Of a stretch of 4,254 nucleotides of DNA, positions 2,364-3,270 are shown piece after piece (the first letter of the stretch is position 1; every line of letters begins with the position of its first letter). The DNA lies in IMG/VR virus record IMGVR_UViG_2531839233_000010; one strand, written 5' to 3'. A program made the translations under genes and the position numbers. The notes under the pieces were generated by a model, which did no database searches, had not been told where the DNA came from, and worked only from the letters and a program-made list of their open reading frames with translations. This stretch comes from a virus. Lineage: Duplodnaviria; Heunggongvirae; Uroviricota; Caudoviricetes.

Positions 2364-2589
2364 ATCAAAAACGATGCACACCGGGTTTTTACCGCGCTAA
2401 TGATTCGCGGGTTTGTCCCTCATGCTCGCCAGTCCTGTGCGGGGGTGGAAGAAACAGGACACTCACACAGATTCTTGTGGGTCGATGCTATTCCTTTCTG
2501 GATTATCCCGATGCCATTCATGCAAGGGCTGTATCAGACGTTCGTCATGGCTTTCAGGCTGACGGCTCCTCCCGGTGGGGTGGCCTGCC

Positions 2590-2609
2590 ACGGGGCGGGA
2601 GCGTCGCGG
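2590..2609. other. Candidate cosN (terminase nicking site); predicted 12-nt cohesive end GGGCGGGAGCGT at 2593-2604
   Basis: ACGGGGCGGGAGCGTCGCGG matches the lambda cos context ACG|GGGCGGCGACCT|CGCGGG at the 9 left and 6 right flanking positions, with the central bases differing. It lies about 175 bp upstream of the Nu1-like gene start, as in lambda (cosN to Nu1 ATG about 190 bp). Confidence 0.5.
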
Positions 2610-2622
2610 AAAAAGGCTAGTT

Positions 2623-2665
2623 TTTGCATTTTTATCGGCCACCATCATCTTTGCATCTTATTGAT
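2623..2665 (+). repeat. Direct repeats TTTGCATYTT(T)AT, candidate cosB-like small-terminase binding elements
   Basis: TTTGCATTTTTAT (2623-2635) and TTTGCATCTTAT (2650-2661) lie 27 bp apart in the AT-rich stretch between the candidate cosN and the small-terminase gene. Confidence 0.3.
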
Positions 2666-2778
2666 TATTAATGGTTATTTGTTTTTTGTATGTCGAATTG
2701 AGTGTTTTTTGTTCGACATCGAACGCGTTTTCTTAAAGTTGTTCGCACGATGCATGTTTAAAGCTCTCCGGAGGAAAT

Positions 2779-3270
2779 ATGGATCATGAGTTGAAAAACC
2801 TGGTGCTGAATATTAATCAACTGGCGGCTTTATCTGGTCTGCACCGCCAGACTGTCGTGGCAAGACTGAAAAACATTCGTCCCGCTGGTGGACATGACAA
2901 ACTCAAGCTATACCGGTTGACCGATATTCTGACTGAATTTATGGGGTTACCACCGCCGGTTGCTGAGGGCGAAATGGATCCACATGAACGCAAAGCCTGG
3001 TATCAGTCTGAACGTGAGCGTCTTAAGTTCGAACAGGAAACGGCACAACTCATTCCGGCCAGTGATGTCAGACGGGAGTTTGCCATCTGGGCAAAAGCGG
3101 TCGTGCAGGTGCTGGAGACATTACCGGATATTCTGGAACGTGACTGTGGTCTGCAGCCTGCCGCTGTGAGCCGTGTTCAGTCCATTATTGATGATCTGCG
3201 CGATCAGATAGCCCTGCGGGTGACCGAAGCAGGTGCGGATGATGAGGAGGAATTACAGCAGGAGGAGTAA
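2779..3270 (+). CDS. Terminase small subunit (Nu1-like DNA packaging protein, N-terminal HTH)
   Basis: 163 aa. GGAGG at 2767-2771 lies 7 nt before ATG 2779. The N-terminus LNINQLAALSGLHRQTVVARL follows the lambda Nu1 helix-turn-helix pattern (VNKKQLADIFGASIRTIQNW), and the C-terminus is acidic. Position is immediately upstream of the large terminase with a TAATG overlap at 3268-3272. Similarity to Nu1 is by pattern, not high identity. Confidence 0.7.
   Translation: MDHELKNLVLNINQLAALSGLHRQTVVARLKNIRPAGGHDKLKLYRLTDILTEFMGLPPPVAEGEMDPHERKAWYQSERERLKFEQETAQLIPASDVRREFAIWAKAVVQVLETLPDILERDCGLQPAAVSRVQSIIDDLRDQIALRVTEAGADDEEELQQEE

Follow-up and report, generated by a model that had tools for sequence, protein, structure and literature searches.

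A putative cosB packaging-recognition site between cosN and a DUF1441 small-terminase gene in lambda-like prophages of Escherichia coli

The DNA between a predicted lambda-like cosN (2593-2604) and the small-terminase gene (2779-3270) of the 4,254-nucleotide stretch analyzed here (the window), that is, the interval 2605-2778, very probably serves as the cosB packaging-recognition site in a lambda-like prophage with cohesive ends that is common in E. coli, O157:H7 included. In lambda, cosB comprises the elements R3-I1-R2-R1, with I2 lying between cosN and R3, and is bound by gpNu1 and IHF. More than 100 loci related to the window share a position-fixed layout consisting of an I2-like segment, a top-strand R3 element, a bottom-strand IHF-consensus site, a bottom-strand R2 element, and a top-strand R1 element, which would correspond to lambda's R3-I1-R2-R1 order with different R sequences.

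Layout of the cos region

The genes and elements considered are as follows (bp n is window position 2592 + n, so that bp 1 is window position 2593).

788-1003: P21-type holin gene, upstream of the interval.
1003-1500: lysozyme gene, upstream of the interval.
1497-1964: Rz gene, upstream of the interval; a noncoding stretch then runs to the DUF1441 gene.
2564-2570, plus strand: cosQ-like heptamer GGCTCCT, a one-base variant of GGGTCCT; outside the interval, in the same cos.
2593-2604, plus strand: cosN, with the predicted 12-nt 5' cohesive end GGGCGGGAGCGT; as in lambda, ACG precedes it and CGCGG follows.
2605-2637 (bp 13-45), plus strand: I2-like segment CGCGGAAAAAGGCTAGTTTTTGCATTTTTATCG, containing one A5 and two T5 tracts.
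2634-2649 (bp 42-57), plus strand: R3 candidate ATCGGCCACCATCATC (core CCACCATCATC, 2639-2649), the proposed cosN-proximal small-terminase site.
2654-2666 (bp 62-74), minus strand: I1 candidate AATCAATAAGATG, one mismatch from the IHF consensus WATCAANNNNTTR; overlaps the second TTTGCAT repeat.
2689-2697 (bp 97-105), minus strand: R2 candidate, bottom-strand TTCGACATA (top strand TATGTCGAA); left arm of an inverted repeat.
2712-2720 (bp 120-128), plus strand: R1 candidate TTCGACATC, within the near-palindrome GTTCGACATCGAAC (2711-2724); right arm of the inverted repeat plus an extra TCGAA.
2728-2762, plus strand: conserved block TTTTCTTAAAGTTGTTCGCACGATGCATGTTTAAA, specific to "long" E. coli cos types.
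2766-2778, plus strand: translation initiation region, with the Shine-Dalgarno sequence GGAGG at 2770-2774 and a chance palindrome CTCCGGAG at 2766-2773.
2779-3270, plus strand: small-terminase (TerS) gene, Pfam DUF1441, 163 amino acids.
From 3270: gpA-type large-terminase (TerL) gene, with a PF05876 match.

The window corresponds to the late region of a lambdoid prophage. PHROGs assigns the DUF1441 protein to the small terminase subunit (phrog_141, E = 2.7e-77), while RefSeq and E. coli genome records label its gene "DUF1441 family protein" and carry no annotation of the cos. The stretch 2560-2800 was found with 100% identity in E. coli O157:H7 chromosomes and with at least 99% identity in 352 of 5426 complete E. 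coli genomes. Near relatives among phages were PhiR40_1 (98%), vB_EcoS-569R4, phi458, and mEp460/Ayreon. For comparison, 122 related loci were fetched, together with several phage records. The distance from cosN to the ATG was exactly 186 nt in 78 loci (57 distinct sequences). In this long type of cos the gene starts at bp 187; in short-type relatives it starts at about bp 130, and R1 overlaps the ATG.

The sequence ACG/GGGCGGGAGCGT/CGCGG (predicted nicks marked by slashes) occupies 2590-2609, the lambda counterpart being ACG/GGGCGGCGACCT/CGCGG (CGCGGG follows GGGCGGCGACCT in lambda). The predicted cohesive end differs from that of lambda at positions 7, 8, 9, and 11; that of Gifsy-1, one of the phages with lambda-like 12-nt ends, is reported to depart from lambda at positions 8, 9, and 11 (PMC4669245). 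The first letters of the phage cdtI record are exactly GGGCGGGAGCGTCGCGGAAAAAGGCTAGTTTTT, that is, the record begins at bp 1; the first base of the Hafnia phage yong2 record is bp 13, and the homologous 12 nt are annotated as the cohesive end in the LLS record. The window would thus carry a lambda-like 12-nt cosN, with CG-flanked nicks, just 5' of the terminase genes. The mEp460_4F5 record, whose first base lies 5 nt ahead of the predicted end and from whose cosN 3 nt are missing, was taken as an assembly artifact and rejected as evidence on the ends. A literature search for the 12-mer GGGCGGGAGCGT returned no relevant paper.

Upstream of the nick, lambda has GGGTCCT at the same distance (about 30 bp) as the heptamer of the window. 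Among the 78 related loci, GGGTCCT was present in 70 and GGCTCCT in eight, the window included. Given this cosQ variant, the cos of this prophage allele may not be fully functional.

On the other side of cosN, bp 1-34 were identical in the three E. coli terminase types described below (A, B, and C), and bp 1-33 were identical in cdtI. Many distant relatives have the motif TTTTT(G/C)GCATTTT(T)AT at the I2-like position, immediately 5' of R3, and this motif resembles lambda GGTTTTCGCTATTTATG. The I2 segment of lambda, which is essential and statically bent, is not a TerS site (PMC4856287).

In the mechanism that we propose by analogy with lambda, the winged-helix domains of the DUF1441 TerS would bind R3 (2634-2649, plus strand), R2 (2689-2697, minus strand), and R1 (2712-2720, plus strand), while IHF would bend the DNA at the consensus site between R3 and R2 (2654-2666). 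The A/T-tract I2-like segment (2605-2637) would join the complex to cosN, and the bound TerS would position the gpA-type TerL for nicking at 2593-2604, generating the 12-nt cohesive ends.

Recognition elements, IHF site, and motifs of the interval

Three zones recurred in 26 diverse loci, in short and long types alike: two top-strand zones, at bp 42-58 and bp 120-132, and between them a bottom-strand zone at bp 95-107. The plan was especially clear in Fels-1 and in Gifsy-2 (elements TCAGCACTGAA / TTCGACACTGAA). Fels-1 contains GCATCATCATCATG (top), an IHF-like site, AAGATGATGAT (CATCATC on the bottom strand), and TTCATCATCTT (top), and thus three copies of CATCATC oriented plus, minus, plus. 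Gifsy-2, for its part, contains GTCAGCACTGAA (top), the IHF-like AATCAATACATTT, TCAGTGTCGAA (bottom strand TTCGACACTGA), and TTCGACACTGAAC (top). Two related loci (L028 and L029) whose TerS recognition helix reads NRNL/M, not HRQT, carry GTGCAGCAG-type elements in all three zones.

Co-variation of the zones was analyzed in seven representative loci by column permutation (5040 permutations). Similarity was higher within loci than between loci both for R1 versus R2 (observed value reached by 5/5040 permutations) and for R3 versus the R1 and R2 zones together (observed sum reached by 48/5040). De novo EM motif discovery in 15 related cos regions confirmed three clusters of sites, at bp 40-62, 88-110, and 112-140. 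The EM motif was discarded as a guide to strand and boundaries, since it collapsed to the strand-symmetric AT[C/G]AT[C/G] because (CAT)n and its complement are similar, and a scan of the window with the EM matrix performed no better than scans of shuffled sequences. At the level of the family, the comparison clearly points to three related R sequences with R2 inverted, as in a complex cosB; the exact boundaries of the predicted sites are uncertain because (CAT)n-like sequence can be read in many registers.

In the window itself, R2 and R1 form a perfect 8-bp inverted pair, and R3 (CCACCATCATC) is divergent and closer to the R elements of relatives. At the R2 zone, (A/G)TGTCGA(A/T) was found at bp 95-107 in most relatives, among them Gifsy-2, LLS, mEp460-type loci, and Citrobacter and Enterobacter prophages. 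At the R1 zone, relatives have a top-strand R-like element at bp 120-132, which in Gifsy-2 is GTTCGACACTGAACGC; by comparison with it, the extra TCGAA of the window would be the tail of R1. Among alleles carrying the window's type of terminase (type A), bp 114-163, R1 included, were invariant; R2 was substituted internally in one haplotype (L082) and at its last position in five. The assignment of R2 and R1 is likely to be correct.

The R3 candidate coincides in position with elements of the CATCATC/CACCAC type in relatives (bp 42-58), and bp 45-57 were invariant in 15 type-A haplotypes. It matches the R1 and R2 elements of Fels-1 at nine of nine positions, while its likeness to the window's own R1 and R2 is weak (6/9 and 5/9, respectively). 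It is nevertheless acceptable as a member of the family because CATCATC-type and TTCGACATC-type elements co-occur in single cos sites of relatives: VT1-Sakai has CATCATCATCAT as R3, ATCATCATC as R2, and TTCGACATC as R1, and another locus (L019) has TTCGACATC as R2 and TTCATCATC as R1. We somewhat favor 2634-2649 as R3, the least secure of the element assignments.

Between R3 and R2, 19 of the 26 diverse related cos regions have a bottom-strand IHF-consensus match (no more than one mismatch) whose start falls at bp 61-64; 18 of these 19 have no other such match from bp 13 to the ATG, and one (L017) has one more. Lambda's I1 match shares this strand and likewise falls between R3 and R2. Among type-A alleles, the ATCAA half of the window's site (bp 66-74) was invariant. 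Across the whole window the IHF pattern was not enriched. The match at 2654-2666 is probably I1, which would give the interval the IHF site found between R3 and R2 in a complex cosB.

A preliminary description of this DNA had called the interval cosB-like and had placed in it four motifs differing from the lambda R sequence. The general proposal holds up: the position between cosN and the small-terminase gene, the rigid spacing, the IHF-consensus site, and the plus, minus, plus elements fit the lambda plan, and the recognition sequences are indeed unlike the lambda R elements. All four motifs are present. The direct repeats TTTGCATTTTTAT (2623-2635) and TTTGCATCTTAT (2650-2661) and the inverted repeat ATGTCGAA (2690-2697) / TTCGACAT (2712-2719) had been located correctly; the extra TCGAA lies at 2719-2723, not 2720-2724, and the palindrome CTCCGGAG lies at 2766-2773, not 2764-2771. 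As terminase sites the motifs fared unequally: ATGTCGAA / TTCGACAT coincides with the conserved R2/R1 pair, whereas the TTTGCAT repeats and CTCCGGAG do not stand as such. The likely R3 (2634-2649) and the bottom-strand IHF-consensus match (2654-2666) had escaped that description.

Chance levels were estimated from 1000 dinucleotide-preserving shuffles of 2620-2778 (35% GC, 44% T). Of the shuffles, 4.9% contained a perfect inverted repeat (8 bp or longer, loop of 3 to 30 nt), 11% a direct repeat matching the TTTGCAT pair in quality, and 52% a perfect palindrome of 8 bp or more. The proposed elements are short, and by sequence statistics alone the inverted repeat is the only marginally unusual motif (p about 0.05). 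The real support for or against the motifs comes from comparison with relatives.

That the TTTGCATYTT(T)AT repeats, and possibly CTCCGGAG, are the recognition elements of the small terminase is very improbable. The interval does hold two similar copies of 12 to 13 nt, 27 nt apart, and the first (bp 31-43) is invariant in type-A alleles and recurs in many relatives. However, this copy lies in the I2-like segment and is homologous in position and sequence to lambda I2, which is not a TerS site (PMC4856287). The second copy (bp 58-69) overlaps the IHF consensus, whose position is conserved, and no other spot varies as much: despite an identical TerS DNA-binding domain, alleles vary at 58, 61, 62, and 65, which are 4 of the 14 polymorphic positions in bp 35-135. 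It is also absent from the mEp460-type allele (type B) and from the relatives that keep copy 1. There is thus no conserved pair, and the TTTGCAT repeat as such is coincidental.

The palindrome CTCCGGAG is replaced by ATTCTGGAGCGG and CGTCAGGAGGGG in types B and C, respectively, and is of a kind expected by chance. GGAG, on the other hand, is present 5 to 8 nt upstream of the ATG in types A, B, and C. The palindrome is no more than the Shine-Dalgarno GGAG plus chance.

The ATGTCGAA / TTCGACAT pair might instead act as a hairpin, such as a stem-loop in the late transcript, a cruciform, or a weak terminator, or an unrelated dimeric regulator might use it as an operator; it would then not be a pair of terminase sites. 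An inverted repeat is kept with other sequences in Fels-1 (AAGATGATGA / TCATCATCTT), Gifsy-2 (TCAGTGTCGAA / TTCGACACTGA), and, imperfectly, type C, a pattern resembling stem covariation, and a weak terminator-like site was called at 2710-2725. Yet the predicted RNA fold of 2680-2740 is ordinary (z = -1.45; 20 of 200 shuffles fold as well), and the Rfam search gave no match at threshold, only subthreshold chance matches. In type B the arms match at six of nine positions and the 2710-2725 hairpin is absent. A hairpin does not predict the third copy of the motif at the R3 position, seen in Fels-1, Gifsy-2, type B, and others, and a terminator between cosN and the terminase genes would block expression of the late operon. 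We regard such a role as highly unlikely and retain the reading of the pair as R2 and R1.

Downstream of R1, the block at 2728-2762 is near-identical in types A and B and mostly kept in type C, despite differing flanks. At its position, Fels-1 and Gifsy-2 have unrelated sequence, and in short-type cos, where R1 overlaps the ATG, the segment is missing. A promoter scan of 2100-2900, which includes this block, found none. The sequence TTCGCAAGATG, common to the R2 zone of LLS and to bp 146-157 of type B, had suggested that the extra 56 bp or so of long cos are a duplication of the R2-R1 module; this idea was rejected, as the best offset gave 22/55 identities, a value reached by 30% of shuffles.

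Terminase types and the mosaic pattern of the cos region

The N-terminal 60 or so amino acids of TerS were modeled confidently as a winged helix-turn-helix (beta-alpha-alpha-wing-alpha), and long helices follow residue 68 in the full-length model. The best structural match of the N domain in the PDB was the solved DNA-binding domain of a lambda-type small terminase; RppC and TerS winged-helix domains were among the top matches, followed, after the small-terminase domains, by excisionase and MerR-type winged helices. At the sequence level, hhalign placed residues 9-52 in register with residues 2-47 of lambda Nu1, weakly (probability 9%), a profile search against PDB sequences gave no significant match, and a literature search for DUF1441 returned nothing relevant. 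On these models, TerS is Nu1-like in fold and architecture although it belongs to DUF1441 and not to Phage_Nu1, and it would qualify as a lambda-type (gpNu1-like) small terminase despite the weak sequence homology.

The 78 loci with the 186-nt spacing fell into two DNA-binding-domain types with near-identical C-terminal TerS halves: type A, that of the window (..LHRQTVVARLKNIRP..), and the mEp460-like type B (..VHRQTAAARLQNLPV..). In a third type, C (L098), cosN and the ATG are 196 nt apart; its C-terminal TerS half is likewise near-identical to those of A and B. Aligned along the cos region, the type A and type B sequences show the following segments.

bp 1-34: identical, covering cosN and the left-hand part of I2.
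bp 35-68: diverged.
bp 69-73: conserved (TTGAT).
bp 99-122: conserved.
bp 123-135: diverged, and different among types A, B, and C.
bp 136-170: conserved.

In phage cdtI, bp 1-33 match exactly, after which another downstream sequence and another TerS follow. Within type A, variation spares R3 (bp 45-57), bp 66-74, and R1 and is concentrated in the spacers.

In phage 21 and lambda, cosB and the N terminus of Nu1 co-vary, while the C terminus and gpA are interchangeable. Types A to C and cdtI resemble this swap in that they share cosN and I2 and differ in the DNA-binding domain and the R zones; a TerS DNA-binding domain and short DNA blocks changing together is the specificity pattern of lambda versus phage 21 (PMC9026076). 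We tentatively suggest that E. coli prophages may carry allelic "specificity cassettes" made up of the TerS DNA-binding domain and the R3 and R1 zones (types A, B [mEp460], C [L098], and cdtI) on an identical cosN/I2 backbone, which would amount to three or four mutually exclusive packaging specificities.

The strong divergence of bp 35-68, the greatest between types, would also suit a simpler cosB like that of phage N15, in which the R3 zone (2634-2649) would be the only one needed and R2/R1 and the IHF match would be accessory or relics. In N15 a single critical R3-like site suffices (PMC4669245, PMC9026076), and the R3 of the window does differ in sequence from its R2 and R1. N15 cosB and the PICI cos sites bound by Rpp-TerS share with the window a cosN-proximal R3-like site about 45 to 60 bp from the nick, but they lack the IHF site and the downstream inverted R2/R1 pair, both of which the window and its relatives keep (PMC9026076). 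Against such simplification, the R2 and R1 zones keep their positions in distant relatives and change together within loci, bp 123-135, too, change with the terminase type, the IHF site keeps its position in 19/26 loci, and bp 114-163 are invariant in type A. A simple cosB is thus unlikely, although less so than the two readings weighed above, and we keep to the complex R3-I1-R2-R1 plan.

Relation to known cos sites and implications

Like lambda cosB, the proposed site lies between a cosN with a 12-nt 5' overhang and the start of TerS (bp 187 here, bp 191 in lambda), contains R3 (plus), a bottom-strand IHF site, R2 (minus), and R1 (plus), and has an A/T-tract I2-like segment of recognizable sequence similarity. 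It differs in that its R sequences are unrelated to those of lambda (TTCGACAT / CCATCATC versus CGTTTCC(T/G)TTCT) and its elements are about 9 to 12 bp long versus 16 bp. Furthermore, R3 starts about 8 bp nearer to cosN, the center-to-center distance between R1 and R2 is 23 bp versus 42 bp, R1 is followed by about 55 bp of conserved DNA before the gene begins, and the TerS belongs to DUF1441 and that of lambda to Phage_Nu1.

Gifsy-2 and Fels-1 have the same TerS family (DUF1441) and the same positional plan as the window. The R2/R1 sequence of Gifsy-2 (TTCGACACTGAA) is near-identical to that of the window (TTCGACAT), and CATCATC of Fels-1 matches the window's R3. The differences from this Gifsy/Fels-1 type are a TerS 44 to 48% identical, an unrelated segment after R1, and the combination of two R flavors in the window. 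The Feiss laboratory has described the Gifsy-1 cosB as R3-I1-R2-R1, with R2 inverted (PMC9026076, PMC4669245), an assignment made, as is ours, by sequence analysis. Because that plan has already been stated for Gifsy-1, the site described here would be a further, well-resolved example of a complex cosB, with the sequence features expected of one, and involves no new mechanism. Modestly novel is the apparent series of DNA-binding-domain/R-zone cassettes on one cosN backbone. If the cassette reading is true, one winged-helix domain would read both R flavors in the window, the CATCATC type of R3 and the TTCGACAT type of R2/R1.

The analysis provides concrete coordinates for the putative packaging signal of a prophage family found in hundreds of E. 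coli genomes, O157:H7 included. The comparative map of I2, R3, the IHF site, R2, and R1, with type-specific R zones on a shared cosN, would offer a system for the study of specificity change in winged-helix TerS proteins, and it bears on the cross-packaging of prophages, cosmids, and satellites.

Elements between cosN and the small-terminase gene

The cos DNA that accompanies the three types of TerS DNA-binding domain (A, that of the window; B, mEp460-like; C, that of locus L098) shared one block located after the candidate R1, and T-rich units recurred in the same interval:

2728-2762, 35-bp block TTTTCTTAAAGTTGTTCGCACGATGCATGTTTAAA, near-invariant across terminase types A, B and C
2667-2683, T-rich unit ATTAATGGTTATTTGTT
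2697-2713, T-rich unit ATTGAGTGTTTTTTGTT
2735-2748, T-rich unit AAAGTTGTTCGCAC

The block was kept in all three types despite their differing flanks, and was absent from Fels-1, Gifsy-2 and the short-type relatives. No promoter-like site was found within it. A stretch of the block, TTCGCAAGATG, is also present in the R2 zone of phage LLS; duplication was tested as the source of this sharing, with a negative result. The T-rich units end in TTTGTT or GTTGTT and recur at a 30-bp spacing, each of them being followed by an R-like element containing TCGA. Such spacing may stem from a helical phasing of the sites, or else from an intrinsic bend in the DNA.

In the short-type relatives, in which the TerS ATG lies at about bp 130, an R1-like element was observed at the start of the gene:

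final ~12 nt up to and including the TerS ATG, R1-like TTCA(T/C)CATCATG, short-type loci

This element overlaps the TerS start codon in loci L017, L019-L022, L024-L027, L030, L031, L132 (LLS), L135 (mEp213) and L137 (yong2), whereas in the window, which is of the long type, R1 is shifted some 55 bp upstream of the ATG. Binding of TerS to the candidate R1 of the short types could repress its own translation.

Phage records that begin at or near cosN

The first 33 nt of the cdtI record (L136, AB285204; positions 1-184) are the same as window 2593-2625; beyond them lies a different cosB (GGCGGCGGCAACATG...), with a TTGAT site that matches the IHF consensus perfectly. Its TerS also differs from that of the window (42% identical), and cdtI would add a fourth cassette to those on the common cosN backbone. 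For its part, the mEp460_4F5 record (L001/L006, LR595868) begins 5 nt upstream of where the cohesive end is predicted, and 3 nt are missing from its cosN (GGGCGGGAGCG-CGG versus GGGCGGGAGCGTCGCGG). Both anomalies are probably artefacts of assembly at the physical ends.

The region upstream of cosN and across it

Four features were recorded downstream of Rz:

2138-2157, + strand, strong intrinsic-terminator-like hairpin, AGCCTCGCATTCGCGGGGCT then TTTTTATT
2315-2620, + strand, ORF of 101 aa, reaching or crossing cos
2400-2789, + strand, ORF of 129 aa, reaching or crossing cos
2564-2570, cosQ-like heptamer GGCTCCT, variant base C2566

The hairpin lies ∼175 nt 3' of Rz and ∼435 nt 5' of cosN; a late operon holding it requires read-through to the terminase genes. 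Both ORFs fall within or overlap the cos region and are therefore probably not genes. In the PhiR40_1 record, the counterpart of the 101-aa ORF carries a hypothetical-protein annotation.

The heptamer differs by one base from the cosQ of lambda, GGGTCCT. The variant was present in the window and in 7 other type-A loci, and GGGTCCT in the other 70 of the 78 related loci. Natural cosQ variation has been described by the Feiss laboratory as "not apparent" (PMC4669245). In the O157:H7 prophage allele with GGCTCCT, packaging termination might therefore be impaired.
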